Assembly: GCA_031426335.1 (NCBI GenBank)
Contig: JANPLC010000111.1
Location: forward strand, 2,384-66,383
Reading direction: 5' to 3'
Source: Planctomycetota bacterium
GTDB taxonomy: Bacteria > Planctomycetota > UBA11346
DNA length: 64,000 bases
The translations under genes were made by a program, and so were the position numbers. The notes under the pieces were generated by a model, which did no database searches, was not told the origin of the DNA, and saw nothing but the letters and a program-made list of their open reading frames with translations. Below, one piece after another: positions 21,991-45,459 of the stretch (position 1 is the stretch's first letter; the number at the start of each line of letters is the position of its first letter).

Positions 21991-22078
21991 GGTGTTCTCC
22001 CGACGCTCGCAGTATCGGCCGCGACTGCCGCGGGTTGAGGCCCCGTTATCGCCAAGTGCCGCGGTTCCTTAAGGTGGC

Positions 22079-24070: not shown

Positions 24071-24107
24071 CTCACTGGCAGCGAGTGGGAACGGGACAGT
24101 GAAAGCG

Positions 24108-24473
24108 TTACGCGGTTTTGTCGATGAACATGCCGATGAAGTCCTGCAGGCGTGCGTGCAGTTCCATCACTTCCTTTGAGGGGATCTGTTTGATCACCTC
24201 GCCGGTCTGCTGGTCGGTGACGCGCATGAAGGCCTGGTCGCTGTCGTGGTCGATATCCATCGACAGGCGACGGGAACTGGCGGCCTCGACCACCTGCTTC
24301 AACTGCGCGGCGGCAGCATGCAGGTGGTCGGAACTCACTGGCAGCTGCCCATTGGCGGCGGCCTGGCCCTGTTGCGTCTGGGCGACCTGGACCTGCGCTT
24401 GACGGTCGGCCGTGTTGGCTGGCCGGATGTAGTCGCCCACTTGGGTGGCGATCTGGGCGTCGATGCGGCTCAT
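24108..24473 (-). CDS. flaG: flagellar protein FlaG
   Basis: C-terminal MDIDHDSDQAFMRVTDQQTGEVIKQIPSKEVMELHARLQDFIGMFIDK matches the FlaG family. Preferred start is MSRIDAQIA (ATG 24471-24473, minus strand). Located immediately upstream of fliD. Confidence 0.7.
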   Translation of the reverse strand: MSRIDAQIATQVGDYIRPANTADRQAQVQVAQTQQGQAAANGQLPVSSDHLHAAAAQLKQVVEAASSRRLSMDIDHDSDQAFMRVTDQQTGEVIKQIPSKEVMELHARLQDFIGMFIDKTA

Positions 24474-24863
24474 GGGCGACCTGCCTCCTTGGGGGCGTGG
24501 TACCCCCAACACGCAGCATCGGTGGGCTGGGCCTGGCGCTTGAGGGAAATCTGGCTTGGGCTTGCTGGCCGACTCCGCCACCGCCCAGATGATTAGCCAT
24601 AAAGATTTCTTTGATAGGCGGTTGTGTCATGTCCGTCGGTCCTCCCCCTGGGACTCAGAACGCAAACCTTTGGCCAATGGTTTCCGGCGTCCGCGAAATC
24701 GGGGGTTGCCGCGGTCCGCAGCCGGTTCGTCGCGGTTCGTCACCTAGCGGGATTTCCCTCAAGCGCCCAGAACCCCTGCCGTCACTGACCCCCAGACCGT
24801 CATATGCGGTTCGCGGTACGGATACCGCTCTCGGCTCCCAACCAACACCCCACGGAGGAAATC

Positions 24864-27344
24864 ATGGGCCTGCGCATCAATCACAATATCTCAGCAATCA
24901 ACGGGCATCGCCAGTTGATGAAAAACGAAAGCATGATGGCCAAGTCGCTCGAGCGCTTGTCCAGCGGCCTCAAAATCAACCGCGCTGCCGACGACGCCGC
25001 TGGACTCGTCATCAGCGAACAGATGCGTGCGCAGATCTCAGGTCTGAAGCAAGGTATCGATAACAGCGAGACCGCGATCTCGATGGTGCAGACCACCGAA
25101 GGTGCGCTCGACGAAGTGAACACGCTGCTGACCAAGGCACGTGAACTCGTCCTGCATGCCGCCAACGAAGGCGCCAACGACGTCAATCAGCTCACCGCTG
25201 ACCAGACTGAGCTCGACAACGTCATCCAGTCGATCACCCGCATCAGCGATGTGACCCAGTTCGGTACCAAGAAGCTGCTCGATGGTAACCTGAACGGTGC
25301 CACGAGTCTCGCCTCCTCCATCTCGCACGTCAAAGTTGGCAACCTGGCCAACAACCCCGCAATTAATGCTGGCCTGATGTCACTCAATGTGACGGCCGCG
25401 ACTAAGGAAGCGATTACCCTCAAGGGTGGTTCTTCGACCGACACCTACATCTTCAACGCGGCGGTCACCGGTGTGAACCTCGGTAGCGCCTCGGTGAACT
25501 CGGGCGTGTCGGTGTCGCTCACCCTTGGCAGCGATACGGTTGCGCTCGTCACCACCGGTACGATGACCGCATCAACCCTGGCTAGCGCGCTCGATACCCT
25601 GGCTAACCAGTACGGTTTCGATGTCGCCTCGGTCAGCGGTGAAATCAAGGTCACCCGCCAGAACTTCGGCTCCACGGACTTCGTGTCGAATATCAGCTTC
25701 TCACGTGCGGGAAGCGCGGCTGTCGCGGGTAGCGCTGAGAACGTCACGGCAACCCTCGAGGTCACCAGCCCGTCGACCAGCTCCGGCGCTGCCGCCGTAC
25801 TGTTCAACGAGTCCATCGGTGGCGTCTCCGGCATCCAGGAGACCAACACCCTGGCCAAGAGTGGCACCCGCTTCACCTACAACATCAGCACGGCCACCGG
25901 CGGGGCTTACTCCGCGACCGTGACCGGTGCGGCCAACGCCACCGTTGCCAGCATCTTGTCGGGCCTGCAGACCTCGATCCAGGGTCAGGCTGGTTTCTCT
26001 GGCGCTTCGTTGACCCTCGCGGGCAGCACCGGTGCCGGTGAGATCAAGTTCAATCTCGCCCGTGGCGACGACACGATCGCCACTGACTTCAACTTCTCGC
26101 TGGCGATCGACTTCGACAACTCTGCCGCCATCCAATCAGAAGTCGAAGTGCTGTCGCTGACGGGTGCGACCTTCAACGTCGGTACCGGCCCAACCTTCAA
26201 CGATGGCACCGGTGCTGTGGCTGGTTCAGCCATCGCCACGGGCACGGTCATGTCGTCCGGCAATGCCATCAACCTGACGGTCAACGGCCAAACGGTGACC
26301 TTTACCGCCGGTGCCGGCGGCCAGAGCATGACTGGTATCGCTGATGGCCTGGAAACTGCCGTGCAGGCTCTGGGAGGCGGCCTCTCAGGCGTCCAGGTCG
26401 AATACCTAGCGGCTGGTGTGAGCCTCACGGGACTCACCAACTACCAGGGTGCAACCGGCGCGGTCACACCCAGTGCGGGCTTCGTACTGTGGAATTCGGA
26501 CGGCACGAGCTTCTCAGTGTCGCTGACGGTCGACCAGACGCAGGGCACTGACGTGGCCATCTCGTCGGTCCAGACCCAGACTGGTGCGGAAGCGGGCGCC
26601 ACGCTCGACCTCACGACCACAGCTCAGGTAAGCAGCGGCAACACCGCCACCAGCGGTGCCGTATCGGGCACTGCGGTGGCCAGCACGACCAGCGGTTCGG
26701 TGGTCAGCAGTGGCCTCGATGCCACCGCGACCATGACCTCGTCCAACGGGGTGGTCCTGAACCTGAAGCAGTCGGCGATCAATGCCGACGGCACCGTCAG
26801 CATGACGCTGACCACGGGCATGAACGACATCGGTTACAAGGATTTCAAGGCCGAGCTCTCCTCGACCTTGCTGTCCGCCGGTGGTGCGACCAACTTCACC
26901 CTGACCCAGGGTGCGGTGTTCCAGGTCGGTGCGAACGCCCTGCAGCAAGTGGCCTTCACGGTCGACGACATCTCGTCCGATGAACTCGGTCGTGGTGCCA
27001 GCTCGTCCTTGGCGAGCCTGGAAGATATGCTCAGCACCAAGGAAGGTGCTCTGCTCAATGGTCTCAGCACGGAAGCTCTGGCGGTCATCGACTCGGCCAT
27101 CGATCAGGTCACCAACCTGCGCGGGCGCCTTGGCGCCTTCCAGGCCAATGCCCTGGAAAGTGGTCTGAACAGCCTGCGGGTGTCCTATGAGAACCTGACG
27201 GCTGCCGAGTCGACCATCCGCGACGTCGACTTCGCCGAGGAATCGGCGAACTTCACCCGGAATCAGATCCTGGTGCAGGCGTCGACCTCGATGCTGGCGC
27301 AAGCCAATCAGATGCCTCAGAACGTGCTGAAGCTTCTCGGCTGA
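24864..27344 (+). CDS. fliC: flagellin, giant variant (~826 aa) with a very large Thr/Ser/Gly/Ala-rich central hypervariable domain
   Basis: Conserved D0/D1 N-terminus MGLRINHNISAINGHRQL...RAADDAAGLVISEQMRAQISGL and C-terminus LRGRLGAFQANALESGLNSLRVSYENLTAAESTIRDVDFAEESANFTRNQILVQASTSMLAQANQMPQNVLKLL. GGAGGA RBS at 24855-24860. Followed by a rho-independent terminator. Confidence 0.9.
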   Translation: MGLRINHNISAINGHRQLMKNESMMAKSLERLSSGLKINRAADDAAGLVISEQMRAQISGLKQGIDNSETAISMVQTTEGALDEVNTLLTKARELVLHAANEGANDVNQLTADQTELDNVIQSITRISDVTQFGTKKLLDGNLNGATSLASSISHVKVGNLANNPAINAGLMSLNVTAATKEAITLKGGSSTDTYIFNAAVTGVNLGSASVNSGVSVSLTLGSDTVALVTTGTMTASTLASALDTLANQYGFDVASVSGEIKVTRQNFGSTDFVSNISFSRAGSAAVAGSAENVTATLEVTSPSTSSGAAAVLFNESIGGVSGIQETNTLAKSGTRFTYNISTATGGAYSATVTGAANATVASILSGLQTSIQGQAGFSGASLTLAGSTGAGEIKFNLARGDDTIATDFNFSLAIDFDNSAAIQSEVEVLSLTGATFNVGTGPTFNDGTGAVAGSAIATGTVMSSGNAINLTVNGQTVTFTAGAGGQSMTGIADGLETAVQALGGGLSGVQVEYLAAGVSLTGLTNYQGATGAVTPSAGFVLWNSDGTSFSVSLTVDQTQGTDVAISSVQTQTGAEAGATLDLTTTAQVSSGNTATSGAVSGTAVASTTSGSVVSSGLDATATMTSSNGVVLNLKQSAINADGTVSMTLTTGMNDIGYKDFKAELSSTLLSAGGATNFTLTQGAVFQVGANALQQVAFTVDDISSDELGRGASSSLASLEDMLSTKEGALLNGLSTEALAVIDSAIDQVTNLRGRLGAFQANALESGLNSLRVSYENLTAAESTIRDVDFAEESANFTRNQILVQASTSMLAQANQMPQNVLKLLG

Positions 27345-27754: not shown

Positions 27755-30238
27755 ATGTCCCTGCGCATCAATCACAACATCTCGGCCATCAATGGCCATA
27801 ATATGATGTTACGTAATGACGCCGCGCTGTCGAAGTCGCTTGAGCGACTGTCCAGCGGCATGCGCATCAACCGTGCGGCGGATGACGCCGCCGGCCTGGT
27901 GATCAGCGAGCAAATGCGCGCGCAGATCGCCGGCCTGGGACAAGCGATCGACAACAGCGAAACCGCGGTGTCCTTCGTGCAGACCACGGAAGGTGCACTC
28001 GACGAAATCAACTCACTGCTGATCAAGGCGCGCGAACTCGCCCTGCACGCGGGCAACACCGGCGTCAACGACGAGAGCCAGCTCTACGCCGACCAAACCG
28101 AACTCGACAACCTCATCGAGTCGATCACGCGCATCAGCACCAACACCCAGTTCGGCACCAAACGCATCCTCGATGGTGGCCTGAGTGGCGCGAGCAACTT
28201 CGGCACCGGTCTGGATCGCGTGCGCGTGGGCAACCTCGCCAACAATCCTGCGATCGACATCGGTCCGGTCACGCTCCAGATCAATCCCGGCGCCAGCGAG
28301 GCGATGACCCTGATCGGCTCCAACGCCACCGACAACTACGTCTTCAGCGGCGCCGTCACTGGCGTCACGCTGGGCACCAGCCGCGTGAACGCGGGCGTGT
28401 CGGTGACGCTGTCGATCGACGATCAAGTGGTCGCCTACGTGACGACTGGCTTGCAGGACGCCACCACCGTGGCGGCACGCCTCGATGCCTTGGCTCAGCC
28501 ACTGGGTTTCAGCGTCGCGGCCAATGCCAACGGTGAAATGGACGTGACGCGCCTCGCCGTCGGTTCGCAAGACTTCACGGCACGAGTGGCCTTTACCCGC
28601 GGGGCGATCCAGCAGGTGGCTGGCCAGAACGAAACCGTCACCGCCACGATCGAAGTGACGACGCCATCCACGGCGGCAGACGCTGCGGGCGCGATGTTCA
28701 GCGGTATTACCAGTCTTTCCGAGGTGCAGACCTCCACCACGGTCAGCAGTGGCACGACCTTCAGCTACGTGCTTCAGAGCGCTACTGGTGGGTCGTTCAG
28801 CGGTGCGGTGGTGGTGGCTTCGGGAACCGCCTTATCGTCGGTGCTCACCAGTCTTGAGGCCGCCATTCAAGCGCACACGACGTTCAGCGGTGCGGCGCTG
28901 ACCTACGACGGCAGCACCAGCAGCGACGGCCTGCGCTTCAGCCTGGCTCGTGGCTTCGACGACATCGCCACCGATTTCAACTTCTCGCTTACTGTCGACT
29001 ACCAGAACAACGCCGTCACCAATTCGCAGGTCAACGTCGTCGACATCGCGGCAGCAACCTTCGCCACCGGTAGCGACGCGACGTTCCTGACCGGTGCCGG
29101 CGGTACGGAAGTCCAAGGTGCGGCCATGGTCGGCACCACCTACCTGCAGAGCGGCAACGCGATCAACCTGACCATCGGCGGCAACACCCTGGTCTTCACC
29201 GGTGCTCGCGACCTCGACACCATCGCCAGTGCGATGCAGACGCAGTTCAACGCCCTGGGCGGAGACTTCGCCAACGTACGCGTGGCCTTCGCTACCGGTG
29301 CCGTGGACCTGAGCGGCTTTGCCGGCATGGCCAACCAGACTGGCGCCACCGCCGGTGGGTTCCGCGGTTTTGTGGTCTTCACCACTGACGGTTCGGACCT
29401 GGCGGTTTCGCTCGCGGTCGACCAGTCGCAGGGCACGGACGTCCTGCTGGGTGATGCCGAGCTGGCAGCTGGTGCGAATGCCGGCTCGACACTCGACTTG
29501 ACCACCACCGCGCAGGTGCGCGATGACAATCAGGTGGCCCAGGCAGCGCATGTGGCCTCGACCGTCGCGAGTGTCAGCGGCAACGTGGTGGTCACCAGCG
29601 GTGTTGATGTCACCGCGACGATGACCTCCAGCAATGGCGTGATCTTGGACCTGGTCAGCACCAGCAACCTGGTCAGCAGCGGCTCTACCCTGGTGCTCAC
29701 TCCGGCAATGGAGGCACTCGGCTACAACGGCTTCAGCGCTGACATCGACCAAACCCTCACCACGGCCGGTGGCGTGACGACCTTTGACCTCGACGAGGGC
29801 GCGGTGTTCCAGGTCGGCCCGAACGCCGGTCAACGCGTCGGGGTGGTGATCGACAGCGTCGCGGCCACCGAACTCGGTCGTAATGTGGAGGACGGCGGGC
29901 CGTTGCGCAGCCTCAACGATCTCCACACCGATCAGCAGGGTGCGTTGTTCAACGGCCTGACGGTCGAAGCGCTGGCGGTGATTGACTCGACCATCAACGA
30001 GGTCACCACCTTACGCGGCCTGCTCGGTGCGCTCCAATCCAACACGCTGGAAAGCGGCTTGAACAGCTTGCGTACCTCGTTCGAGAATCTGACCTCTGCC
30101 GAATCGACCATCCGCGATGTCGACTTCGCTGAGGAGTCCTCGAACTTCACGCGCAACCAGATCCTGGTGCAATCCGCCACCGCGATGTTGGCCCAGGCCA
30201 ACCAGTTGCCGCAGAACGTGCTCAAGCTCCTGCAGTAA
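27755..30238 (+). CDS. fliC: flagellin, second giant paralogue (~827 aa) with a divergent central domain
   Basis: N-terminus MSLRINHNISAINGHNMMLRND...RAADDAAGLVISEQMRAQIAGL. C-terminus LRGLLGALQSNTLESGLNSLRTSFENLTSAESTIRDVDFAEESSNFTRNQILVQSATAMLAQANQLPQNVLKLLQ. The central ~550 aa differs from the first copy but shares short motifs (NLANNPAI, GAVFQVG). Confidence 0.9.
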   Translation: MSLRINHNISAINGHNMMLRNDAALSKSLERLSSGMRINRAADDAAGLVISEQMRAQIAGLGQAIDNSETAVSFVQTTEGALDEINSLLIKARELALHAGNTGVNDESQLYADQTELDNLIESITRISTNTQFGTKRILDGGLSGASNFGTGLDRVRVGNLANNPAIDIGPVTLQINPGASEAMTLIGSNATDNYVFSGAVTGVTLGTSRVNAGVSVTLSIDDQVVAYVTTGLQDATTVAARLDALAQPLGFSVAANANGEMDVTRLAVGSQDFTARVAFTRGAIQQVAGQNETVTATIEVTTPSTAADAAGAMFSGITSLSEVQTSTTVSSGTTFSYVLQSATGGSFSGAVVVASGTALSSVLTSLEAAIQAHTTFSGAALTYDGSTSSDGLRFSLARGFDDIATDFNFSLTVDYQNNAVTNSQVNVVDIAAATFATGSDATFLTGAGGTEVQGAAMVGTTYLQSGNAINLTIGGNTLVFTGARDLDTIASAMQTQFNALGGDFANVRVAFATGAVDLSGFAGMANQTGATAGGFRGFVVFTTDGSDLAVSLAVDQSQGTDVLLGDAELAAGANAGSTLDLTTTAQVRDDNQVAQAAHVASTVASVSGNVVVTSGVDVTATMTSSNGVILDLVSTSNLVSSGSTLVLTPAMEALGYNGFSADIDQTLTTAGGVTTFDLDEGAVFQVGPNAGQRVGVVIDSVAATELGRNVEDGGPLRSLNDLHTDQQGALFNGLTVEALAVIDSTINEVTTLRGLLGALQSNTLESGLNSLRTSFENLTSAESTIRDVDFAEESSNFTRNQILVQSATAMLAQANQLPQNVLKLLQ

Positions 30239-30312: not shown

Positions 30313-32187
30313 ATGACATCTGTGCAGACCCCGCTTGCGGGCGGAGTACCCGCCCTGTCCAGTAACGGCAGAACTGCGAATCAAGGGTCGCGCGCCATGA
30401 ACGACATGCCGTCCGCACAACGGTATCAGCAAGCCCGGGTCATGTTGCAGCAACAGGCCCCGGTGATCGCCCAGGCACTACCGGAACAGTGGCCAGCGAG
30501 CGTCCCCACGTTGCCTCAGCGACCCACACTCGACGCGGCCCGGTTGGCCACCAGTACGCTCAACGAAGGCCTGTTGCTCATCGGTCTTGGCGACGGCTCA
30601 ATCCTGCAATTCCTGCGCGGCGATGCGAACGGCCGCTCCAAGCTGGTGCATGTCCTGGTGCTCATGCCGGAGATCCCGCATTTCGCCCACCTGCTCGGGA
30701 TCGTCGATCTGCCGCTGCTGTTCAAGGAATTGCACCTGAGCCTGCACCTGGTGTTGAACGCCAACGAACTGGGCTCGGTCATCAGCCGGGCCTTCACCAA
30801 CCACGGCCAGATCGCCCGTCTGGCGGGGACCCGCACGGTCGACACCCATGCGTTGGCGCCCAACGCCGAGCGCATGCGCGACGAGATTCACCCAGCGATC
30901 GGCAAGTTGCTGCTGGAGCGGTACGACTGCCTGGGCAACGACGTCTACGACACTTTTCTGGGGGCCAAACACGCGCTGATGCATGGTCGCAAGATCATCA
31001 CCCAGCCGCGTTCGAGCGACTACGCCTACCGCTATGCCGGCAAGTCCGCCCTGTGTATCGCCAGTGGTCCGAGCGTCAGCGCGCACTACGAGCGCATCCG
31101 TGAGATCCAACACGAACACGTGATCATCTGTGCCGACTCCATCCTTGGCGGTCTGTTGAAAAACGGCATTGAGCCGGACTTCGTCTGCATGGTCGAACGT
31201 CCAGATGTCATGCACGCTTTGATCGACGGACACGCCGAACAATGCCGCACGGTGATTTTCGCTTTGCCAGTGGTGCATCCCACCAGCGTCATTCCGTTCG
31301 GCGAACGGGTGGCCTGGTTCTGGAACGCCGACGATCTCTATCCCTGGCTCGACGCGAACGAGCCACGTTTGTCGAGCGGACGTTCGGCCGGCACCATCAC
31401 CGCGTCGGTCGCGGGCCTGCTGGGGATCAAGGAGGCTTGGCTGCTCGGCCATGATCTGGCCTACCGCAACGACGGACAGAGCCATGGCGTGGGCACCGCA
31501 CCGTTGGCAGTGGAATCGCAAGCCGAATGGGCGAAGGACCTCTCGCGCACCTCTGCTAATTACCACAAACGTCTGATCGACACGCCGAAGAACGGCGGAG
31601 GCTACCTCCAGACCACCGGCGTGTGGGAAATCTTCCGCTCGGACATCGAAGGCATCATCCAGTCGTATCAGGGCCGCACGACCTTCATCAACGTCAATGC
31701 TGCGGATGAGGTCGGCGCGGTCATCAAGGGCACCACGGCCGGCGGCTTGCCGTTGGCGACGGGCGTAGCGCTGGAGAAATCCCATCCCCAACGTGCCTGG
31801 AATGAAACGCAGTGGGAAACCTACCGCTCGCGTGGCCGGCAACTGCTCGCCGACTTCGCTACCGTCCAGGAGCGGTTCAAGGAATACGATCTGGAGTTAG
31901 CGACCTGGCGGCCGTTGTCACATGATCGCGAAGCGGTCGAGTCGATGGGCAAGAAGATCGACCTTGGCACCATCGTCAGCCCGGAAAATGCCGCGTGGTT
32001 CACCTACGTCTTCCGCGCAGCGTTGCGCAACCTGATGGTCAAACTGCACCACAACACCTTCGTGCGCACCATGGCGGAACGGAACTGGAACCAGGTGCAG
32101 ATCATGCGTCTCTACCTGCACTCCGTGCCCAGCCTTATCGAGCGCCTGCGTCCCGAATTGGAACTGGCGCTCAAGGAGTTCACATGA
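30313..32187 (+). CDS. motility-associated factor (Maf, DUF115/MptE-like) family protein, putative flagellin nonulosonic-acid glycosyltransferase
   Basis: 624 aa. Central region YRYAGKSALCIASGPSVSAHYERIREIQHEHVIICADSILGGLLKNGIEPDFVCMVER resembles the DUF115 core of Maf proteins. Position immediately downstream of the flagellin genes. Start is uncertain (30313 or 30397). Confidence 0.6.
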   Translation: MTSVQTPLAGGVPALSSNGRTANQGSRAMNDMPSAQRYQQARVMLQQQAPVIAQALPEQWPASVPTLPQRPTLDAARLATSTLNEGLLLIGLGDGSILQFLRGDANGRSKLVHVLVLMPEIPHFAHLLGIVDLPLLFKELHLSLHLVLNANELGSVISRAFTNHGQIARLAGTRTVDTHALAPNAERMRDEIHPAIGKLLLERYDCLGNDVYDTFLGAKHALMHGRKIITQPRSSDYAYRYAGKSALCIASGPSVSAHYERIREIQHEHVIICADSILGGLLKNGIEPDFVCMVERPDVMHALIDGHAEQCRTVIFALPVVHPTSVIPFGERVAWFWNADDLYPWLDANEPRLSSGRSAGTITASVAGLLGIKEAWLLGHDLAYRNDGQSHGVGTAPLAVESQAEWAKDLSRTSANYHKRLIDTPKNGGGYLQTTGVWEIFRSDIEGIIQSYQGRTTFINVNAADEVGAVIKGTTAGGLPLATGVALEKSHPQRAWNETQWETYRSRGRQLLADFATVQERFKEYDLELATWRPLSHDREAVESMGKKIDLGTIVSPENAAWFTYVFRAALRNLMVKLHHNTFVRTMAERNWNQVQIMRLYLHSVPSLIERLRPELELALKEFT

Positions 32188-33314
32188 GCGACGAAGCCCT
32201 GGATCGCTTCCGCGCCTTCCTTGCCACGCGAAGCACGACGGGCGCCACCGAGCGCGACCTGCTGCTCCATGAGATGGGCGCGACCATCAATCGTCATCGA
32301 CTGACCGGACGCGAAGAAGGCATGCATGCCTTCAACACCACGCAACTGTGCGAGTTGGTGCTCGGTCAACGAGCGTGGTCGAGAGATCAACCGTTCGTCA
32401 CTGGCTTGATGCTCAGCGCCCTGGTTGATGGCGAATTCGAGATCTACGACAAAGCCAAGAGCGAAGGACTATTGCCGACGACCTGGACTTGGAGCGCTTG
32501 GGCGGAGGGCTTCGCTGGCGAGGAGGGTGATCTGCGGCGTCTTATGGGTTCCATCCCGGCGGTACGGGAACGTTGTGGTGCCGCGTGCTTGGCAGTACGC
32601 GGGAATCCAGCGGTGGTGGGCAGCGCGCTGCTGGGCGACTTCTGCAACGTTCACATGGCCAAGGTCTACCATCGACTGCTGCGCGTCGGCCTCGCCGGGC
32701 CCAGGGGTTCGGAGATTGCTGATCATGAACTCAGCCGTCTGGCAGGCTGCCTGGAAGTATTGTTCGCCGAGGACACTGACGCGACACTCGCTGCGTTGGT
32801 GCAGTCCAGCAGCATCGATCATCCGGAGATCCTCGTCGCGGCCTTCAAAGATGCCGCCGGCGACCTGACCCGTACCGCCATTGCCCAGCGTCACCTGGAG
32901 CGGAACCGTCCGCTCGAAGCGCTTTCCCTGGTGCAAGACCTGCGCTTCCTCTCTCCAGCTTACGACCAAGCGATCCTCATCGCCGCACTCGCGGCACTTG
33001 AATGCGGCAAGTTTGAAAAGGCCGAGTTCTATAGCCGCAGCATCGCGAACGAGGATACCCGCCTCAAGATCGTCACGCGCATTGCCCAGGGCAATGGCGA
33101 TACCGGGGTCGAACTGGATGCGCTGACCCGTCTCTATGAGCGCAGTCCGCAGGATGCCCAGATCTTCGTGATGCTGATCAACGTGCTGCGACGCATCGGA
33201 CAGACCGCGTTGGCGTTCGCACTATGTGCCGAGGCGCAGGAACGTTTTCACAACGACCCCATGATTGCCCGCATCATTCGTCCGATCCTGGCGCAGGGCC
33301 CCGGGGGCACCTGA
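32184..33314 (+). CDS. hypothetical protein with TPR-like C-terminal helices, translationally coupled to maf
   Basis: ATGA overlap at 32184-32187 with the maf stop. 377 aa. I recognise no family. Confidence 0.5.
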   Translation: MSDEALDRFRAFLATRSTTGATERDLLLHEMGATINRHRLTGREEGMHAFNTTQLCELVLGQRAWSRDQPFVTGLMLSALVDGEFEIYDKAKSEGLLPTTWTWSAWAEGFAGEEGDLRRLMGSIPAVRERCGAACLAVRGNPAVVGSALLGDFCNVHMAKVYHRLLRVGLAGPRGSEIADHELSRLAGCLEVLFAEDTDATLAALVQSSSIDHPEILVAAFKDAAGDLTRTAIAQRHLERNRPLEALSLVQDLRFLSPAYDQAILIAALAALECGKFEKAEFYSRSIANEDTRLKIVTRIAQGNGDTGVELDALTRLYERSPQDAQIFVMLINVLRRIGQTALAFALCAEAQERFHNDPMIARIIRPILAQGPGGT

Positions 33315-33326: not shown

Positions 33327-34373
33327 TCAGTGCGCTGATTGGTGCGCGCTGGCGTATTCTTCGGGCAGTCCGATGTCGCTCCAGGGTTCCTGCATGTGGT
33401 AGGCGCCGACGCGCTTGCCACTCTGCAAGCAGCCGTTGAGCAGCTCAGTGATGGGATACATACGCCCCTTGGGGATGAGCGGGATCAACTCGGGATTCAG
33501 CACGTAGATGCCGGCGTTGATGCGGTAATTGAGCTTTGGTTTCTCGACCAACTTGACGATGCGCGACTCTTTCACCTCGGCCACGCCGAAGGGGACCTGC
33601 ACCGCGTGTTCACGCAGGCCCATGGTCGCGGCGTACTCCCCACTGCGATGGAAGGCCAACAGCCGCCCGACATGGATGCGGGTCAATAGGTCGCCGTTCA
33701 TCACCAGCAGCGGATGAGTTGGGACCTCCGGCACCAAGGAGATCGGACCTCCCGTGCCGAGCGGAGTATCTTCGCGCTCATGCAGGTAATCGATGCGGCA
33801 CTGGAAGTCCGAGCCATCGCCGAAATGGTCCTGGATCATGCGTGCGAGGTAGTTCACCGAGATGAAGATGCGGCGCACGCCGTGGCCCACCAGCAGTCGT
33901 ACGATATGTTCAAGGATCGGCCGATCGCCGATCGGCAGCATGGGTTTGGGAATGCCCTTGGTCAGTTCGCCCAGGCGTTCGCCTTTGCCGCCGGCCATGA
34001 CCACTGCCCACGAATCGCAGCGCGAGCCCATCAGCGCCATTTTCAGCGTGTGCAGATCGCGCAGGACCCCTTTGTCATCGACCACCGGCAAACAGGCGAA
34101 ACCGTTGGCGACCATGAACTGCAACGCATCGGTGCGCGACAGGTCCGGACTGACGGTGGTGAATTTCGGGTTGGCAATGGCGCTGATGCGTTCAGACAGT
34201 GGAACACCGCGCAGGATTGCCCGGCGGATGTCGCCATCGGTGGCCATCGCGATCAGCTTCTGCCCAGGACCGCAGACCATCGCCACTGACAGACCGGAAG
34301 AATCGATCACCCGCATGGCGTCCAGGATAGAGGCCTCTGGCGCGACGATGAGGTCATGGAGATCAGTGGCCAT
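33327..34373 (-). CDS. tandem-CBS-domain sugar-phosphate nucleotidyltransferase (PtmE-like)
   Basis: Two N-terminal CBS domains, then the nucleotidyltransferase signature VVMAGGKGERLGELTKGIPKPMLPIG. This architecture is known from nonulosonate (legionaminic acid) precursor pathways. Confidence 0.75.
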   Translation of the reverse strand: MATDLHDLIVAPEASILDAMRVIDSSGLSVAMVCGPGQKLIAMATDGDIRRAILRGVPLSERISAIANPKFTTVSPDLSRTDALQFMVANGFACLPVVDDKGVLRDLHTLKMALMGSRCDSWAVVMAGGKGERLGELTKGIPKPMLPIGDRPILEHIVRLLVGHGVRRIFISVNYLARMIQDHFGDGSDFQCRIDYLHEREDTPLGTGGPISLVPEVPTHPLLVMNGDLLTRIHVGRLLAFHRSGEYAATMGLREHAVQVPFGVAEVKESRIVKLVEKPKLNYRINAGIYVLNPELIPLIPKGRMYPITELLNGCLQSGKRVGAYHMQEPWSDIGLPEEYASAHQSAH

Positions 34374-34376
34374 GGC

Positions 34377-35072
34377 TCAGGCTCCCGGCTTGCGACAGAC
34401 CACTACCCACAACTCGATCAGGTGCAGTTGATTGCCCATGGTGTAGGAATTACGCTCGATGGAGTGGTCGGTGAAACCGGCGTAGACGCGGTCCACATCA
34501 GCGTGGCTGAGAAAGTGGATGTAGCCCACGTTGCCCAGCGGCCCTTCAGAAATGTTGCGCATCGAGCCCGGATCCTCGCCCGGCTGCCCCAGACCGTACC
34601 CCCAGGTACGCTCGGTGAAGTTCAGCGAGATGAACATCCCACCGGGCTTCAGCACTCGTTTCACTTCGGCCGCACAGGAGAGCATCGAACGCATGGGATT
34701 CGCGCAGAGCGAAGCGTTGTCGAGCACCGCGTCAAAGCTCGCATCGTCCCACGGTAAGCGCTGGGTGAAGTCGCCGACCTGGAGATCGGCGGTGAGGTTC
34801 TCGCTGGTCAGACGCGCGCGGTTCTGCGCGATACCACTCGGCGAGCCGTCGATGGCCGCGACGCTGAAACCTTCGCGGGCGAGGAACCAGGTGTTGGCGC
34901 CAGGTCCACTGCCAAGATCGAGCACGCGCACCGCTTTGCGGTCGGGCACGCGGCTGAACTTGCGCATGATCTCACGAATCACCGGCTCGGGCGGATACTT
35001 GCCCCAGGCGCGGGAGGCGAAGATCGCCTCCCAGGTGGGATCCCAACTGGCGCTCGCGTTCGTGGTGTTCAT
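34377..35072 (-). CDS. class I SAM-dependent methyltransferase
   Basis: Motif I VLDLGSGPGANTWFLAREG and motif II/post-I region. Embedded in the sugar operon. Confidence 0.7.
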   Translation of the reverse strand: MNTTNASASWDPTWEAIFASRAWGKYPPEPVIREIMRKFSRVPDRKAVRVLDLGSGPGANTWFLAREGFSVAAIDGSPSGIAQNRARLTSENLTADLQVGDFTQRLPWDDASFDAVLDNASLCANPMRSMLSCAAEVKRVLKPGGMFISLNFTERTWGYGLGQPGEDPGSMRNISEGPLGNVGYIHFLSHADVDRVYAGFTDHSIERNSYTMGNQLHLIELWVVVCRKPGA

Positions 35073-36127
35073 GTGCGGTTCTCCATGGCGATGGGTTGGC
35101 GGTAGGCCTGGAACCAGGCTGGCGTGCGGCCACTGCGGCTGCGCCAGTCGTTGATCAGGCGTTCATGTCGTGCGGCATCACATATCAGACCCGCAACGCG
35201 AAAATGTGAGCGGCCGCGACCGATGCGGCGTTTGAACTGCAGCAGGCTGTCATCGTCTGCGACGCTCATGCCGCCACCGAGGTGGATGCCGGCCAGGCCT
35301 CGCGTGGCGGCATGATCGGCCATCGCCTCGAACAGCAGATTGCCGGCAGCATTGTGCACGTCGCCCTGACGAGCGCTAAGGTGGTAATGGCCATACCGCG
35401 GCCCACACATCAGCAGTGCCTGTGCCACCGCCACGCCGCCAGCATCGATCACCGACACCAGCGCGAGGTCGTCGCCCAATCCGGCCGCGAGTCTGGTGTA
35501 GTAAGTGTCGTTGAAGCGGTACGCCGATCCGGCGGACAAGCGCTCCATGGTCTGATCGTAGAGCGCGCGGAAGGACCGCAGCACTTCGCTGGTTGGTGCG
35601 ATGCTGATCGTCGAGTTGAAACCCAAGCGGCGGGCGCGGTTCACCTGCGAGCGATGATTAGCGCAGTCGCCACCAGCAAACGCCTGCGTTCGTCCATCGG
35701 TGAGCGGGATCCAGGCGGTAGGATGGGGTGCGCCGATCAGGAGATGAGCTAAGGCCGCATAGTCGGCGAACGGATTCAACCGCAGGAAGAGGTTGACGAT
35801 GCCGCGCGCTGCGAGCGTGTCGGCAAGGAGCGGCCAGCATGTGGCGACTTCACCACGCGTCAGCAGGCCGGGATAACCATAGGGGCTCTCAGCATCGTAA
35901 CCCTCGCCCTCGGGCAGTCGCCGTGGCAGCAAGGGGACCGCCATTTCTCCGGCGGGGGTGCGCACGTGCACCAACAGGGCGTCATCACCTGCCGCCGCGT
36001 GAACGTAGCCATGCTGCGCGTACACATCCACGCCGTCGAAGCTGCTGAGGACGCCATTCCAGCGTTCGCTGCCCGCCGAGATCGTGGTGATCTCCACCTG
36101 GCTCACGTCTTCACCAAGAGGTTCCAC
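35069..36127 (-). CDS. FemAB-like / GNAT-fold acyltransferase domain protein
   Basis: 352 aa. Its stop overlaps the methyltransferase start (35069-35072). Weak resemblance to Acetyltransf_6/FemAB-type N-acyltransferases. It may substitute for the N-acetyltransferase step of the pathway. The 5' end overlaps neuC by 25 nt, so the true start may be internal. Confidence 0.45.
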   Translation of the reverse strand: MEPLGEDVSQVEITTISAGSERWNGVLSSFDGVDVYAQHGYVHAAAGDDALLVHVRTPAGEMAVPLLPRRLPEGEGYDAESPYGYPGLLTRGEVATCWPLLADTLAARGIVNLFLRLNPFADYAALAHLLIGAPHPTAWIPLTDGRTQAFAGGDCANHRSQVNRARRLGFNSTISIAPTSEVLRSFRALYDQTMERLSAGSAYRFNDTYYTRLAAGLGDDLALVSVIDAGGVAVAQALLMCGPRYGHYHLSARQGDVHNAAGNLLFEAMADHAATRGLAGIHLGGGMSVADDDSLLQFKRRIGRGRSHFRVAGLICDAARHERLINDWRSRSGRTPAWFQAYRQPIAMENRT

Positions 36128-37227
36128 GCGGGATCGCGCGAGCGCAGGTTGGCCGCCAGATGGTCGAGGATGCGCGGGATCGCATGGCCGTCGCCATACG
36201 GATTATCGAATTGTCGCCCCGCATGCCGAAGAGCGTGTGCCTGCGTGATGGCGTTGCGCAACGAGTCGACCGTCGGCGTACGGCAATCGATCACGCTCGT
36301 GCCCATCTTCCGGCCAAGTTGACGGGTCCCGAGGTTCACGGTGGGTGTGCCGAGGCTCGGTGCCTCGATCAATCCGGCGCTCGAATTGCCGATCATCACG
36401 CCACAGAATGCAATCAGGCTGCGGAAGGCGCGACTGCCCAGCGACGCGAGCAGATGGCAGCGCGGCAGGCGACGGGCGAGCTCCGACCAGCAAGCGTGAA
36501 TGCGCTCGCTGCCCGGATCGCCGTTGGGACTGGAGAAAAAGAGGTGACCTGGCCACTGCGCAGCAACGGCGGCGATGGCCCCGAGGATGGTTTCCAGCTC
36601 GGCCGGATCGCGCGTGATCGGATGCACGGCGACACACAGATCGCCAACTCCTGGCTTCGCACCGGTCAGTTGTTCCAACTCGCCAGCAGACAACCGTGGT
36701 TCGGTCAGGAGCGTGTCGATGCCGGGATCGCCGGTGGCCAGCACGCGCCGGGGTTCTTCCTTCAGGTCGTCGACCAGTCGGTTGCCGGCACCTTCATGCG
36801 TCGGGTAGTGGAGATGAGCGAGGCGCGTCACCGCGTCACGGACTACATCATCAATCGCACCCTGGGTTTTTTCACCACCCGAGCAGTGCGCCAACGCCAA
36901 GTTCGCTACGGTGGCCACGTGAGCGACCTCCAGCAGTTCGTGGCGATCACCGATCACCAGCACGGCCTCGATGGCATGCTCTTCCAGCAGCGCGAGCAAA
37001 GCTCGCTGATGCACGTGTCCGACCGAGCTGTCGGAGGCCGGCAGTCGTCGACTGTCGAGTCCGAGGAGTTCGTCAGCGTTCGGTGTTCCGGCAGGAAGGT
37101 GCTGGCCGGTGATGACCGTGACGCAGGCGAAGCGAGCATCCGCCTGGGCCGCACGCGCGAGTGGCGCGACGAAGCCAAAATCGCTGCGCGAGGTGCTGAC
37201 CATGACGATGCGGATGGGCTCGCTCAT
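36103..37227 (-). CDS. neuC: UDP-N-acetylglucosamine 2-epimerase (hydrolysing), NeuC/LegG-like
   Basis: 374 aa. N-terminus IRIVMVSTSRSDFG and the GT-B epimerase fold motifs. The 4-nt overlap with the upstream neuA-neuB fusion gene suggests translational coupling. Confidence 0.75.
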   Translation of the reverse strand: MSEPIRIVMVSTSRSDFGFVAPLARAAQADARFACVTVITGQHLPAGTPNADELLGLDSRRLPASDSSVGHVHQRALLALLEEHAIEAVLVIGDRHELLEVAHVATVANLALAHCSGGEKTQGAIDDVVRDAVTRLAHLHYPTHEGAGNRLVDDLKEEPRRVLATGDPGIDTLLTEPRLSAGELEQLTGAKPGVGDLCVAVHPITRDPAELETILGAIAAVAAQWPGHLFFSSPNGDPGSERIHACWSELARRLPRCHLLASLGSRAFRSLIAFCGVMIGNSSAGLIEAPSLGTPTVNLGTRQLGRKMGTSVIDCRTPTVDSLRNAITQAHALRHAGRQFDNPYGDGHAIPRILDHLAANLRSRDPAWNLLVKT

Positions 37228-38966
37228 ACGAGATCCGCTTCGTCGATCGCTTCGCCGGCGGCGCGGGCGCGTTTCAGGCGTCGTCCGACCACGTCGTAGA
37301 AATTCGACACCGCAAGTCCGCGTTCAGCGCGCAGCGCGTCGAGTGCGGAAACATCGAGCGTACTGCCCGCCGCAAGATCACGTGCCGCATGCAGACGTTT
37401 GCGTACCACGGCACGCGTCGCGAGTTCGTGGGTGCGCGGTTCCTTGCGGCCGTCGCCGAGGGCGCGTTGCGCACCGCGCACCAACGCGATCTGACGCGCG
37501 AACTCGTCCGGATCCAAGCTCGCTGCATGATCAGGGCCCGGACGACTACGATCACGTGTCAGATGTTTTTCCCACAACGGCAGCCCGACGCCAACGGCAG
37601 CGAGGGCCGCTTCGGGACCCGGACAATGATCCGACAATCCGACCGGCACACCGAACGCCGCGCGCAGCGTGGCGATGGCGCGCACGTTCATGTCGTCGAG
37701 TTTGGCCGGGTACGCGCTGACCGCGTGGAACAGGGCGACGGGGCAGTTTCCTTGCGAATGCAACGCAGCGAGCGCAGCGGAGACCTCAGGCAGGGTGCCC
37801 ATGCCGGTCGACAACAATACCGGTAGACCGAGGGCACCGATCTGCGCTAGGTACGGCAGGTTGTCGAGTTCGGCGGAGCCGATCTTGATTGCTGGAATGC
37901 CGAGTTTTACCAGCAAGCGTGCGCTGACGATCTCGTCCGGCGTGCTGAGGAAGAGGATGCCGCGTTCGCGCGCATGGGCCGCGAGTTCCGCCCACGCAGA
38001 GTCCGGCAGTTCCAGGCGCTTGAGCATGGTGAACTGGTCGTCGTGCGTGCCGTCCTGCTCGCGCTGGTACTCGGCCTTGGGTGCGCCCGGGCGACAGATC
38101 AATTCCGTGCGCCAGGTTTGAAACTTCACCGCATCCGCGCCGATCTCCGCAGCCGCATCCACCATCCGATGCGCTTCAGTAACGTCGCCGTCGTGATTGA
38201 CGCCAGCCTCGGCGATGATGAAGCAACGCTCGCCATCGGCGATGCGTCGATCACCGATGTGGACTGCCGGTGCGGTGGTGGACAGCAGCGCATCGGCTAC
38301 CGCCAGTTCGTGTTCGTGGTCGATGTCCACCGCCAAGCGCGGATCGAGTGGCACCCCACGCGTGCGTCCGGGTTGCACTAGCGGACGGCTGGCGAGCACA
38401 TCACCCGCCGACACCACGTAGACCGCGCCGGCCTCACGCACGACGGGTGGCAGATCCTGGCGTCTGGTGGTGGCATGTTCCGGCAGCAATGGCACCAGTC
38501 GACCGTCCGCGTCGAGGCGATGACACCATGCTGGATGATGGTCGGGCGCGCAGACGCTCTCCACCGGATCGCCATGGCGCAGGAACAGTCGCACCGCATC
38601 AACCACATGCTCCGTCGGCGTCAGCGGCGAGGTCGCCTGCATCAGCACCACCGGACGTGGATCGCTGGCAGCAATTCCCAACGTCCGCAGCGCATGGCGC
38701 ATGACATCGTCGCTGCTGCTGGCGTCACCTGCGAGTGTTGCCGGTCGGACGAAGGGCGTTTCCCCACCCCAGCGCCGCCCTTCGGCGAGGATCTCCTCGT
38801 CGTCGGAGTCCACGATCACCCGACCGCCGCCGAGCTGGGCACACGCTGCGCGCGCGGTGCGCACCGCGCGTCCGATCAGGCTGATGCCGCCGACGGTGCG
38901 CAGATTCTTGCGCGGGATACCCTTCGAACCGCCTCGTGCGGGAATGATGATGAGTGGCTCGCTCAC
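37224..38966 (-). CDS. bifunctional fusion: N-terminal CMP-nonulosonate cytidylyltransferase (NeuA-like) + C-terminal nonulosonate/sialic acid synthase (NeuB-like, with SAF domain)
   Basis: N-terminus LIIIPARGGSKGIPRKNL (NeuA/KdsB-type cytidylyltransferase). Middle CFIIAEAGVNHDGDV...DAVKFQT (NeuB TIM-barrel). C-terminal SAF-like GSTLDVSALDALR. A single 580-aa ORF. Confidence 0.8.
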   Translation of the reverse strand: MSEPLIIIPARGGSKGIPRKNLRTVGGISLIGRAVRTARAACAQLGGGRVIVDSDDEEILAEGRRWGGETPFVRPATLAGDASSSDDVMRHALRTLGIAASDPRPVVLMQATSPLTPTEHVVDAVRLFLRHGDPVESVCAPDHHPAWCHRLDADGRLVPLLPEHATTRRQDLPPVVREAGAVYVVSAGDVLASRPLVQPGRTRGVPLDPRLAVDIDHEHELAVADALLSTTAPAVHIGDRRIADGERCFIIAEAGVNHDGDVTEAHRMVDAAAEIGADAVKFQTWRTELICRPGAPKAEYQREQDGTHDDQFTMLKRLELPDSAWAELAAHARERGILFLSTPDEIVSARLLVKLGIPAIKIGSAELDNLPYLAQIGALGLPVLLSTGMGTLPEVSAALAALHSQGNCPVALFHAVSAYPAKLDDMNVRAIATLRAAFGVPVGLSDHCPGPEAALAAVGVGLPLWEKHLTRDRSRPGPDHAASLDPDEFARQIALVRGAQRALGDGRKEPRTHELATRAVVRKRLHAARDLAAGSTLDVSALDALRAERGLAVSNFYDVVGRRLKRARAAGEAIDEADLV

Positions 38967-40261
38967 ATCTTCCCGTCAAGGCTCTTGCCGGTTTCGCGGT
39001 GGATGAAGCCGGGGACGACGGCAGCGAGGGCCAGCGCCAACTCGGCCTTGCTCGGGATGTCGTTGGCGGAGCGGCAGCGCACGGCGCGATAAATGGTCTG
39101 GAGCAGGTGGCGGAGCGGCGCGAGGTCCACGGCGTGCGGCGCGGGGATGGTCGCGAGGTGGGTAAAGCCGTTCGCATGCGCGCTTTCCTGCTCACCGCGT
39201 GCGACAAATTCTTCGATCTCTTTCTCGCCACTGGTGTCAGAGGTGGTGACCAGCACGGGATAGCGTTTCTGCGCCAGCTCGCCGGCGACGCTGGCCAAGG
39301 CCTTGGCGGGATCGCGGTAATGTGACGGTGTCAGTCCCAGGTCGCGCAGGGTCGCATCGGCGATGTCGATGAACGAGGCCATGTCCTTGGCCGGATCCAA
39401 ACGTGGGATCACCACGTGGCTGTGTGGCGTGGCAGCGCCGGCGAGCAGACAGAGCTGACCGGCTTCACGTGGCGTGACGAGGTAGCGGCGGATGTCCCCA
39501 GGAGCAGCCAGCGGCTGTTGTTTCTCGATGCGCTGCAAGAAGGCCCACGGCAGGCTGCCATCGCTGAAGGCGACGTTGGCGAAACGCGCGGTGGTGACGT
39601 GAGTCAGGCGTGGCAAAACTTGCGCCGGTTCCTGCGGCCACGCGATCGCTTCATCGTTCTGCGTGTGCGCCCACAACAGGATCTCCATCGCGCGCTTGGA
39701 CGCGCCCATGATCCCGACCGGGTTGGCGGCCTTGTCGGTGGAGACGAAGAAAACCCGCGCGTGCGCGTTGCGCTGACGCCGCCGCAAGCAGCACAGGAAA
39801 AAATGCGCCTTGAGCAGATTCACTTCCAACAGGCGCACGGTCGAGAAATGATCGCGCTCCGAGCGCACGTGCTTCAGCGCAGCGAACGAGAACACCACGT
39901 CGAACGGCGCCTGTTCATCGAGAAAGATTCCGGTGAGCGGCGTGCCGTAGTCGAGTGGCTGAACGATCAACTCACCGGTGAAGGGCGTGGGCAGATTGCG
40001 GATCGAGCGCACCAACTCGGCCAGGTTGTTCTCATTCGGATCGAGCACCGCCACCGCCGCGGGCTTGGTGACCTTCAGCATCTCGATCAACGTCGCTGAG
40101 CCGATCGACCCGGCAGCGCCGACCAGCAGCACACGTTTGCCGTCGAGCAGGGATTTCAGCTCGCCGGTGGCCTTGGCCACATCGCTGGCGAACAGGCTGT
40201 CATGCCGGCCAGTGACCGCCTGGGCGATGCGTTCGATGCGGGGCGTCAGGCAGAGGGGCAC
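38963..40261 (-). CDS. NAD-dependent nucleotide-sugar 4,6-dehydratase/epimerase (CapD/PglF/PseB/LegB-like), first gene of the nonulosonate operon
   Basis: Rossmann motif VLLVGAAGSIGSA and the short-chain dehydratase fold. Its stop overlaps the neuA-neuB start (38963-38966). Confidence 0.7.
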   Translation of the reverse strand: MPLCLTPRIERIAQAVTGRHDSLFASDVAKATGELKSLLDGKRVLLVGAAGSIGSATLIEMLKVTKPAAVAVLDPNENNLAELVRSIRNLPTPFTGELIVQPLDYGTPLTGIFLDEQAPFDVVFSFAALKHVRSERDHFSTVRLLEVNLLKAHFFLCCLRRRQRNAHARVFFVSTDKAANPVGIMGASKRAMEILLWAHTQNDEAIAWPQEPAQVLPRLTHVTTARFANVAFSDGSLPWAFLQRIEKQQPLAAPGDIRRYLVTPREAGQLCLLAGAATPHSHVVIPRLDPAKDMASFIDIADATLRDLGLTPSHYRDPAKALASVAGELAQKRYPVLVTTSDTSGEKEIEEFVARGEQESAHANGFTHLATIPAPHAVDLAPLRHLLQTIYRAVRCRSANDIPSKAELALALAAVVPGFIHRETGKSLDGKM

Positions 40262-45457: not shown

Positions 45458-45459
45458 TC

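Follow-up and report, generated by a model that had tools for sequence, protein, structure and literature searches.

We analyzed a 64,000-nucleotide stretch of contig JANPLC010000111.1 from a Planctomycetota bacterium (hereafter the window) and focused on a six-gene operon on its minus strand (40261-33327) that is predicted to make a nonulosonic acid of the legionaminic (Leg) type. The operon faces plus-strand genes for two flagellins, a motility-associated factor (Maf), and a tetratricopeptide repeat (TPR) protein, which converge on it. We find that the operon has no DegT-family aminotransferase and that this state is real and maintained, not an artefact or the outcome of recent decay. In addition, one of its genes encodes a protein that, judged from profile matches and a structural model, has a true Fem fold and probably depends on aminoacyl-tRNA. 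With little more than even confidence, we propose that the operon serves the synthesis of a CMP-legionaminic-acid-type sugar. An aminotransferase encoded elsewhere would supply its amine, which would receive an amino acid from aminoacyl-tRNA before being methylated.

A six-gene operon of predicted legionaminic type

All six open reading frames (ORFs) of the operon are full length. In the order of transcription, they are as follows.

38963..40261, minus strand: 4,6-dehydratase of the LgaA/PglF type, first operon gene (432 aa; PF02719 Polysacc_synt_2, E 3e-29)
37224..38966, minus strand: NeuA-NeuB fusion (580 aa; CTP_transf_3 + NeuB + SAF)
36103..37227, minus strand: NeuC/LegG/LgaD-like hydrolyzing nucleoside diphosphate (NDP)-sugar 2-epimerase (374 aa; Epimerase_2, TIGR03568 NeuC_NnaA)
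35069..36106, minus strand: Fem-family tandem-GNAT transferase (345 aa; PF13480 Acetyltransf_6)
34377..35072, minus strand: class I S-adenosylmethionine-dependent methyltransferase (231 aa; Methyltransf_25, _31, _11)
33327..34373, minus strand: CBS-nucleotidyltransferase, PtmE/LegX/LgaF-like, last operon gene (348 aa; CBS + NTP_transferase)

For the Fem-like gene, the ORF list gives 352 aa from 36127; we used the 345-aa form, as in record P0121. Four of the five junctions are 4-nt ATGA/GTGA start/stop overlaps, the last is a 3-nt gap, and the six genes form a translationally coupled operon. The GC content at third codon positions (0.72-0.82) matches that of other genes in the window. The original prediction, made from the sequence alone, had described six tightly overlapping genes, and we confirm this in coordinates, domain content, and the four 4-nt overlaps. 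Its assignments of the NeuA-NeuB fusion, NeuC, the FemAB/GNAT protein, the methyltransferase, and the CBS-nucleotidyltransferase were likewise upheld by Pfam, NCBIfam, and PDB searches.

We examined which nonulosonate pathway the conserved enzymes point to. The closest solved relative of the dehydratase is 3pvz, the Vibrio fischeri "UDP-GlcNAc 4,6-dehydratase" (E 8e-69, full length). When aligned to PglF (5bju) over the STDKA...IMGxxK region, the protein retains the Thr-Asp-Lys triad and has Met at Lys+8, a pattern that, according to work on PglF, marks retaining 4,6-dehydratases in which the usual Tyr is missing. With the PseB and FnlA models, it reached only 25-36 bits (PseB, 25 bits against a cut-off of 408). 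Thus, of the earlier description "CapD/PseB/LegB-like," the 4,6-dehydratase stands and PseB does not, the type being LgaA/3pvz (PglF-like). The next protein joins a NeuA/LegF-like CMP-nonulosonate synthetase (residues ~1-230) to a NeuB/LegI-like synthase (residues ~240-580). Its NeuB domain (Pfam NeuB, E 3.5e-74) scored 353 bits with NeuB_NnaB, which is under the equivalog cut-off of 399.65, versus 218 bits with PseI; the N-terminal part scored 112 bits with PseF, and the PDB matches of the fusion are NeuB/SiaC, SpsE, and CMP-N-acetylneuraminic acid (Neu5Ac) synthetase. The epimerase scored 249.6 bits with NeuC_NnaA (TIGR03568), over the curated cut-off of 235.9, and matched the GDP/UDP-N,N'-diacetylbacillosamine (diNAcBac) hydrolyzing 2-epimerase (5zlr/5xvs, E 4e-33) and the epimerase domain of GNE in the PDB. 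We rejected these matches as a means of telling Neu from Leg pathways because human GNE and the diNAcBac epimerase score alike.

The CBS-nucleotidyltransferase has the two-part architecture of PtmE/LegX, and its position is conserved in related loci. PtmE/LegX has been proposed as a marker separating Leg from pseudaminic (Pse) pathways, and LegX is needed for Leg-dependent flagellin glycosylation in Brevundimonas (Brevundimonas study); PtmE itself has been described as a glucosamine (GlcN)-1-phosphate guanylyltransferase. Pfam and NCBIfam scans found no equivalent of PseC, PseG, or PseH of the pseudaminic pathway (PseBCHGIF) and a NeuC-type epimerase instead. Because an LgaA-type dehydratase, a PtmE/LegX-like protein, and a NeuC-type epimerase are accompanied by a synthase that scores higher with NeuB than with PseI, the homologies support a pathway that is Leg-type and not Pse-type. 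The "legionaminic/pseudaminic-like" operon of the original prediction is accordingly narrowed to the legionaminic type, since the PseI score (218 versus 353 bits) and the presence of NeuC speak against the pseudaminic one.

An operon maintained without an aminotransferase

Of the parts expected in a leg/lga cluster, the window has a putative retaining-type NDP-GlcNAc 4,6-dehydratase, a synthase and a CMP-nonulosonate synthetase (in one fusion), a hydrolyzing 2-epimerase, and, judged by architecture, the PtmE/LegX marker. It has neither an in-cluster C4 aminotransferase (LegC/LgaB) nor a hexapeptide acetyltransferase within its 64 kb. Pfam found no DegT_DnrJ_EryC1 domain among 41 window ORFs (at least 90 aa, non-overlapping, picked greedily with the longest first), and hmmsearch --max with a DegT profile that we derived from 14 related loci gave a best E of 6.5 against all six-frame stop-to-stop ORFs of at least 60 aa. 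This null result confirms for the window the absence that had been noted before and speaks against a hidden or degraded DegT; the 4-nt overlap of the dehydratase and NeuAB genes leaves no room for a DegT remnant. The sole aminotransferase in the window, a class III enzyme at 20014-21435 downstream of fliD-fliS, was rejected as a candidate because it is BioA of biotin synthesis (TIGR00508, 439 bits, above the cut-off of 405). Further, Pfam found no hexapeptide N-acetyltransferase (LegH/LgaC/PglD-like) in the window, where the Fem-like enzyme would fill the acyltransferase role.

The lga-type clusters, namely lgaABCDEF(G) of Acinetobacter baumannii and the V. fischeri loci with a 3pvz-type dehydratase, share with the window the dehydratase family, the NeuC-type epimerase, NeuB, NeuA, and the CBS-nucleotidyltransferase. 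For the epimerase, the PDB match 5zlr is a diNAcBac enzyme of the A. baumannii type. In contrast to them, the window lacks the DegT protein LgaB and the hexapeptide acetyltransferase LgaC, has NeuA fused to NeuB, adds the Fem-like transferase and the methyltransferase, and has a flagellar and not a capsular context. In the literature, lgaABCDEF is referred to as the module for CMP-Leg5Ac7Ac (PMC5595891). In our genome scan, DegT directly follows the LgaA-type dehydratase in 23 of the 27 loci with downstream sequence (19 non-planctomycete and 4 planctomycete). Many of these also have a hexapeptide acetyltransferase, NeuB, NeuC, the CBS-nucleotidyltransferase, and NeuA, that is, the lga/Leg gene set, which the 19 non-planctomycete loci contain whole or in part, as the contig allows. 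The Leg/ptm and Maf system of Campylobacter jejuni shares with the window a PtmE-type gene, the synthase, the cytidylyltransferase, and Maf by the flagellins, but, unlike the window, has LegC and LegH. The LegB protein of C. jejuni is an RmlB-like dehydratase and not a Polysacc_synt_2 protein, and we know of no Fem-like enzyme in that system.

The layout without DegT also occurs in three further loci (loci are numbered with the prefix L): L033, an independent Logan assembly of SRR20217183 in which the operon and its neighbors are identical to those of the window, L034, and L039. The window and L034 share 97% identity in the dehydratase, with a ratio of nonsynonymous to synonymous substitution rates (dN/dS) of 0.05, and between the window and L039 the CBS-nucleotidyltransferase is 91% and NeuC 75% identical. 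The Fem-like protein is 82% and 74% identical to those of L039 and L034, respectively (dN/dS 0.13-0.16), and NeuC, the Fem-like protein, and the methyltransferase together fall within 74-82% identity in these comparisons. For all six genes, dN/dS, determined against L039, L034, or L001, is 0.05-0.17, and the operon is under purifying selection. We discount decay because dN/dS is this low and because the layout is kept across relatives whose Fem-like proteins are only 74-82% identical.

Comparison of the related loci revealed a mosaic and, in our reading, a cassette-swapping glycosylation island. Its flanks, formed by the dehydratase on one side and by the CBS-nucleotidyltransferase, TPR, Maf, and flagellin genes on the other, are conserved, and the genes in the middle change rapidly. 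The middle of L002 consists of DegT, a hexapeptide acetyltransferase, a GT2-like gene, and separate NeuB and NeuA genes, and that of L005 is the same minus DegT and the acetyltransferase. L001, L003, and L004 have a WbuX/WbuY/WbuZ acetamidino cassette without DegT, and the dehydratase of L001 is 93% identical to that of the window. L009/L042 have the order dehydratase, DegT, NeuAB, NeuC, Fem, and CBS-nucleotidyltransferase, which recurs in L036 with a 160-aa ORF between DegT and NeuAB. The window, L033, and L039 have NeuAB, NeuC, the Fem-like gene, and the methyltransferase gene, and L034 has the gene set of the window plus an additional gene that we call X350. L038 looks fragmented or chimeric and was left out. 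The uneven divergence of the operon from L034 and L039 is consistent with recombination, or with pressure to diversify, in the glycan-determining genes. The series of cassettes found between the flanks (DegT with Hexapep and GT2-like genes; WbuX/Y/Z; the GT2-like gene only; Fem and methyltransferase, either alone or with a cryptic DegT-fold gene) looks like antigenic diversification, here of the flagellar glycan of environmental bacteria.

We made some side observations on cassettes of other kinds. In L002 (4382-5251) and L005 (4802-5656), a protein of ~285 aa with a weak GT2 match stands at the place of NeuC, and NeuB there is ~30% identical to that of the window; the L005 cassette consists of the dehydratase, GT2-like, NeuB, NeuA, and CBS-nucleotidyltransferase genes alone. 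Such loci may represent another nonulosonate route with a GT2-fold nucleotide-sugar hydrolase. In L013 (11180-12004, a Paraglaciecola metagenome-assembled genome (MAG)) and L014 (3757-4596, a Campylobacterota MAG), the LgaA-type dehydratase occurs with a small RmlD/Epimerase short-chain dehydrogenase/reductase (SDR) of 274-279 aa and no DegT in the available sequence, which suggests a route to a 9-deoxy, 7-hydroxy nonulosonate.

In a neighbor-joining tree of NeuB (with the fragmented L038 set aside), the window, L039, and L034 are nested in a clade of clusters that contain DegT, their NeuB being 78% (L035), 69% (L009/L042), 65% (L008), 62% (L036), and 48% (L037) identical to that of the window. 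A Fem-like gene is present in L035, L009/L042, L036, and L037 of this clade and not in L008. This nesting among DegT-plus-Fem clusters, together with the association of Fem-like and DegT genes described below, suggests that the sugar amine is still made. An unlinked gene, as in Brevundimonas subvibrioides, is in our view the simplest account of the missing aminotransferase, and the reason for the gap is probably mundane. In that bacterium, the Leg genes are dispersed, LegC (Bresu_0765) lying at another locus than LegB, LegX, LegG, and LegF (Bresu_3264-3267), and the Leg genes of all loci together with LegX were successfully reconstituted in a heterologous host (Brevundimonas study). LegX is there a CBS-nucleotidyltransferase, as in the window; unlike the window, B. 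subvibrioides uses FlmG and not Maf, has the LegH acetyltransferase, and has no Fem-like enzyme or methyltransferase.

We considered X350, the 350-aa product of the extra gene of L034, as a replacement aminotransferase and rejected it because the gene is not found in the window, L033, or L039 and accompanies a normal DegT in L037. The gap in the window is therefore not filled by X350. The gene lies between NeuC and the Fem-like gene in L034 (8952-10004) and between a formyltransferase-NeuC fusion and NeuB in L037 (10001-11065). The family comprises seven sequences of ~350 aa, with invariant motifs that include EDRCLWA and GSxRKW and look DegT-like. No Pfam, NCBIfam, or PDB sequence match to X350 was obtained, and sequence profiles likewise detected next to nothing. 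Its AlphaFold2 model (predicted local distance difference test score (pLDDT) 74) has DesV, ArnB, AtS13, and CalS13 as best Foldseek matches (~E 1e-9, template modeling (TM) score ~0.55), by which X350 appears to be a cryptic pyridoxal phosphate-fold protein of nonulosonate clusters.

The Fem-like transferase and a proposed pathway

The original prediction called the fourth gene product "FemAB/GNAT-like," which can now be refined to a Fem fold by profile, structural comparison, and motif, in a family that is genomically tied to DegT. A profile of 43 Fem-like members matches FemX of Weissella viridescens (E 8e-12), the aminoacyl-tRNA-dependent peptide synthase Sbb17 (4e-9), and lipid II glycyltransferase (3.5e-8). 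The AlphaFold2 model of the Fem-like protein has a pLDDT of 94, and its ten best Foldseek matches comprise FemX, Sba18/Sbb17, and a putative lysyl-phosphatidylglycerol (PG) synthetase domain, with a best E of 3e-14; later matches include FemA, MprF, and aminoacyl-PG synthases. All of them are aminoacyl transferases that use tRNA or are related to such enzymes. A Phe-Lys pair that is invariant in the family aligns with Phe-304 and Lys-305 of FemX, so that the fold and the motif of Fem enzymes occur together. With FemX and Sba18/Sbb17, the window protein shares the tandem-GNAT fold (Foldseek E 3e-14, TM score ~0.65) as well as this motif; in contrast to them, it has only 15-18% identity and would act on a nucleotide-linked amino sugar of a nonulosonate pathway. 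In their solved structures, Sba18 and Sbb17 are bound to streptothrisamine.

The association with DegT extends beyond the loci described above. Among 19 informative metagenomic loci (those in which the Fem-like gene is flanked on either side by 2.5 kb of sequence or more), DegT lies within 3 kb of the Fem-like gene in 12 and is directly adjacent in 6. Modules of dehydratase, DegT, and Fem, present in hundreds of metagenomic loci, recur outside a nonulosonate context, where they occur without PtmE, and metagenomes yielded at least 533 relatives in the wider Fem-like family. The loci with such modules include L049, L051, L054, L056, L061, L066, L081, and L083 (within L040-L119), and these Fem modules may be enzymes that make the N-aminoacyl 4-amino-4,6-dideoxy sugars of polysaccharides. 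In the distant homologue P0164 (573 aa, JGI), the Fem-like domain is fused to a PglD_N/hexapeptide (NeuD-like) acetyltransferase, a further tie of the Fem-like family to the acylation of sugar amines. Within nonulosonate clusters, L009/L042 and L036 have DegT and the Fem-like gene and no other acyltransferase; the Fem-like enzyme is, therefore, the only candidate there to cap the amine made by DegT.

The methyltransferase has only generic PDB and NCBIfam matches, and the pair of Fem-like and methyltransferase genes is also found in L033, L034, L035, and L039. A full-text literature search found no Fem or aminoacyl-tRNA enzyme linked to a nonulosonic pathway, the nearest case being a FemAB-like gene of Clostridium difficile. 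The type B flagellin locus of that bacterium has a FemAB-superfamily gene (CDR20291_0244) and an FdtB-like gene (CDR20291_0247) and makes a peptidylamido sugar (PMC5207246); unlike the window, it has no nonulosonate pathway and has other glycosyltransferases, and the role of the Fem-like protein there is putative.

Based on homology at every step, we envisage the pathway as follows. The PtmE/LegX-like CBS-nucleotidyltransferase would make the NDP-GlcN(Ac) precursor, which the LgaA/PglF-type dehydratase would convert to an NDP-4-keto-6-deoxy sugar. An aminotransferase encoded outside the operon and the 64-kb window would turn the keto group into a 4-amine, and the Fem-like enzyme would acylate this amine with an amino acid from aminoacyl-tRNA. 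The methyltransferase would then methylate the aminoacyl product, most plausibly at the new alpha-amine. The NeuC-type enzyme would release the nucleotide and epimerize C2, the NeuB domain would condense the resulting hexose with phosphoenolpyruvate, and the fused NeuA domain would activate the product with CTP. In this product, one N-acyl group would probably be a methylated amino acid in place of acetyl. Maf, probably together with the TPR protein, would transfer the sugar to Ser/Thr residues of the two giant flagellins. The earlier idea of a methylated or aminoacylated nonulosonate thus holds as an interpretation, with a Fem-fold protein and a methyltransferase in the operon.

Several points weigh against this pathway. 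The 64 kb of the genome that were read contain no candidate aminotransferase, and the species has no GTDB representative; the best dehydratase identity in GTDB is 75%, and the nearest entries are planctomycete MAGs. Further, L001, L003, L004, and L005 are without DegT and without any acyltransferase, and supply in trans would therefore have to cover both an aminotransferase and an acyltransferase, where one reductase would be simpler. The pairing of the dehydratase with an SDR in L013 and L014 means that amine-free routes probably exist. Foldseek matched the Fem-like model to, among others, aminoacyl-PG synthases, which acylate a hydroxyl, and an amine acceptor is therefore not mandatory. Lastly, the matches of the methyltransferase do not distinguish N- from O-methylation.

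All but the first and last of these points also speak for an amination-free route, in which the 4-keto group would be reduced by an unlinked ketoreductase, or would otherwise end as a hydroxyl, to yield a 5-acylamino-3,5,9-trideoxy nonulosonate with a 7-OH that resembles a 9-deoxy sialic acid. The literature mentions a diamino nonulosonate with a trideoxy counterpart (fusaminic acid). We regard this route as unlikely, and equally unlikely the role it would give to the Fem-like enzyme, namely, to aminoacylate a hydroxyl or to acylate the C2 amine of NDP-GlcN. The window is without an RmlD-like reductase, too (Pfam scans), its NeuB shares only ~30% identity with the NeuB of L013, a reductase-type locus, versus 62-78% with those of DegT-plus-Fem clusters, and the Fem-DegT gene association is strong. 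It seems to us quite improbable that this lineage makes its flagellar nonulosonate without transamination, the 4-keto-6-deoxy intermediate being processed by a route that the cluster does not show and the sole additional nitrogen being provided by the Fem-like enzyme, which would take an N-methyl amino acid from aminoacyl-tRNA and place it on a hydroxyl or on the C2 amine. If true, the product would be a nonulosonic acid of a new class, 9-deoxy and 7-O- or 5-N-aminoacylated, whose synthesis includes a tRNA-dependent step. The Fem-like enzyme could also act on the C2 amine of NDP-GlcN, followed by the methyltransferase, on the way to an N5-modified legionaminic acid, with amination and acetylation at C4 by an unlinked PglE/PglD-like pair. 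The product would resemble Leg5GluNMe7Ac, which is reportedly the glycan on Clostridium botulinum flagellin. The guanylyltransferase activity described for PtmE would leave this amine free, and L037, which has a formyltransferase-NeuC fusion and a Fem-like gene, points to two free amines in its pathway. We nonetheless find an N5 modification improbable, given that DegT and Fem without another acyltransferase (L009/L042 and L036) fit a Fem enzyme acting on the DegT-made amine and that dehydratase/DegT/Fem modules outside nonulosonate clusters do without PtmE.

Two further explanations would deprive the operon of its flagellar sugar altogether. In L009/L042 and L036, the nearest architectures, DegT directly follows the dehydratase, and the window, which lacks it, could be a decaying remnant whose sugar is unfinished after deletion of the aminotransferase. 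Six full-length, translationally coupled ORFs, dN/dS values of 0.05-0.17, and the persistence of the layout in relatives at 74-82% Fem identity make this a very poor explanation. We give just as little credence to a capsule or lipopolysaccharide (LPS) pathway for Neu5Ac or Kdo (3-deoxy-D-manno-octulosonic acid) that adjoins the flagellins by chance, even though NeuC, NeuB, and NeuA alone suffice for CMP-Neu5Ac and a similar cassette occurs in Wzy or polysaccharide-export loci elsewhere (L036 and L037). The profile HMM runs did not return such a classification, with Kdo cytidylyltransferase models at 25-38 bits only. Moreover, Neu5Ac synthesis involves neither the dehydratase nor the PtmE-like gene, and yet both are translationally coupled parts of the operon and under purifying selection, which does not agree with a NeuCBA-only operon. 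Across more than eight related loci, the TPR-Maf-flagellin synteny is kept even as the cassettes differ.

The decoration of flagellin with nonulosonates is well documented for Campylobacter, Helicobacter, Aeromonas, Clostridium, and Caulobacter-type bacteria. For Planctomycota, our literature search turned up no account of it; Planctomycetes are touched on briefly in a large-scale phylogeny of synthases. Nonulosonate operons beside maf and flagellin genes are thus already known, and the window adds a member from Planctomycota, predicted to be of Leg type. Because the aminotransferase is repeatedly absent from intact clusters under selection, prediction of nonulosonate structures from clusters can mislead. 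The acylating enzymes of N-aminoacyl amino sugars and nonulosonates are, to our knowledge, mostly unassigned, and the Fem-fold enzyme is a candidate for making N-aminoacyl amino sugars and N-aminoacyl legionaminic and pseudaminic acids. We consider tRNA-dependent aminoacylation of amino sugars a more valuable lead than the missing aminotransferase.

Flagellar neighborhood and other features of the window

The genes on the other side of the point of convergence are as follows.

21562..24581, minus strand: flaG-fliD-fliS filament genes, divergent from the flagellins (FlaG, FliD_N/FliD_C, and FliS matches)
24864..27344, plus strand: flagellin 1 (826 aa; Flagellin_N, Flagellin_C)
27755..30238, plus strand: flagellin 2, with a very large central domain (827 aa; Flagellin_N, Flagellin_C)
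30313..32187, plus strand: Maf, putative flagellin nonulosonate transferase (PF01973 MptE-like, E 7e-26)
32184..33314, plus strand: conserved protein of ~375 aa, in related loci always flanked by Maf and the sugar operon (TPR_19 and TPR_16, both weak)

The start of flagellin 2 was set from the L033 gene call and the sequence. In the central domain of flagellin 1, 23-29 of every 100 residues are Ser or Thr, and Cys is absent. Maf scored 93 bits with the NCBIfam PseD domain model, which is far under the full-length cut-off. Orthologues of the TPR protein with 43-55% identity occupy the same position in L002-L005, L009, and L042; L033, L034, and L039 have size-matched genes there. The TPR protein might be a flagellin-binding partner of Maf, much like the TPR domain of FlmG.

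The order running from the dehydratase through the CBS-nucleotidyltransferase to TPR and Maf recurs in L002-L005, L009/L042, L033, L034, and L039, and a flagellin comes after Maf in related loci wherever the contig extends that far. The link of the operon to flagellin and Maf that was claimed from the window is upheld by this recurring synteny in related Planctomycota loci. With Maf adjoining both the flagellins and the nonulosonate genes, the region has the layout of a putative Maf-dependent glycosylation island.

When the regions upstream of the flagellins and of the operon were read by eye, no convincing sigma-28 or sigma-54 consensus was seen. In the ~540-bp gap between the first gene of the operon and the ORF at 40801-41376, we noted a 38-nt inverted repeat (40540-40649; 92% complementary, 34-nt spacer), which is flanked by a second, 14-nt repeat pair (40444-40457 and 40746-40759).

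On this side, the sugar operon is adjoined by a Bat-like operon of MoxR, DUF58, BatA-VWA, and DUF4175 genes (41081-51619), which is also found in L001 and L034. Its last gene (49814-51619) encodes a secreted 601-aa protein rich in Gln, Ala, and Glu; this gene has CAG-rich tandem repeats and is the source of a strong AT-skew peak (0.42). Further on, at 53908-63486, a 3192-aa ORF with PQQ beta-propeller, PA14, CBM9, CBM35, and Big_5 matches encodes a giant protein of the surface or carbohydrate-binding kind that is typical for Planctomycota.

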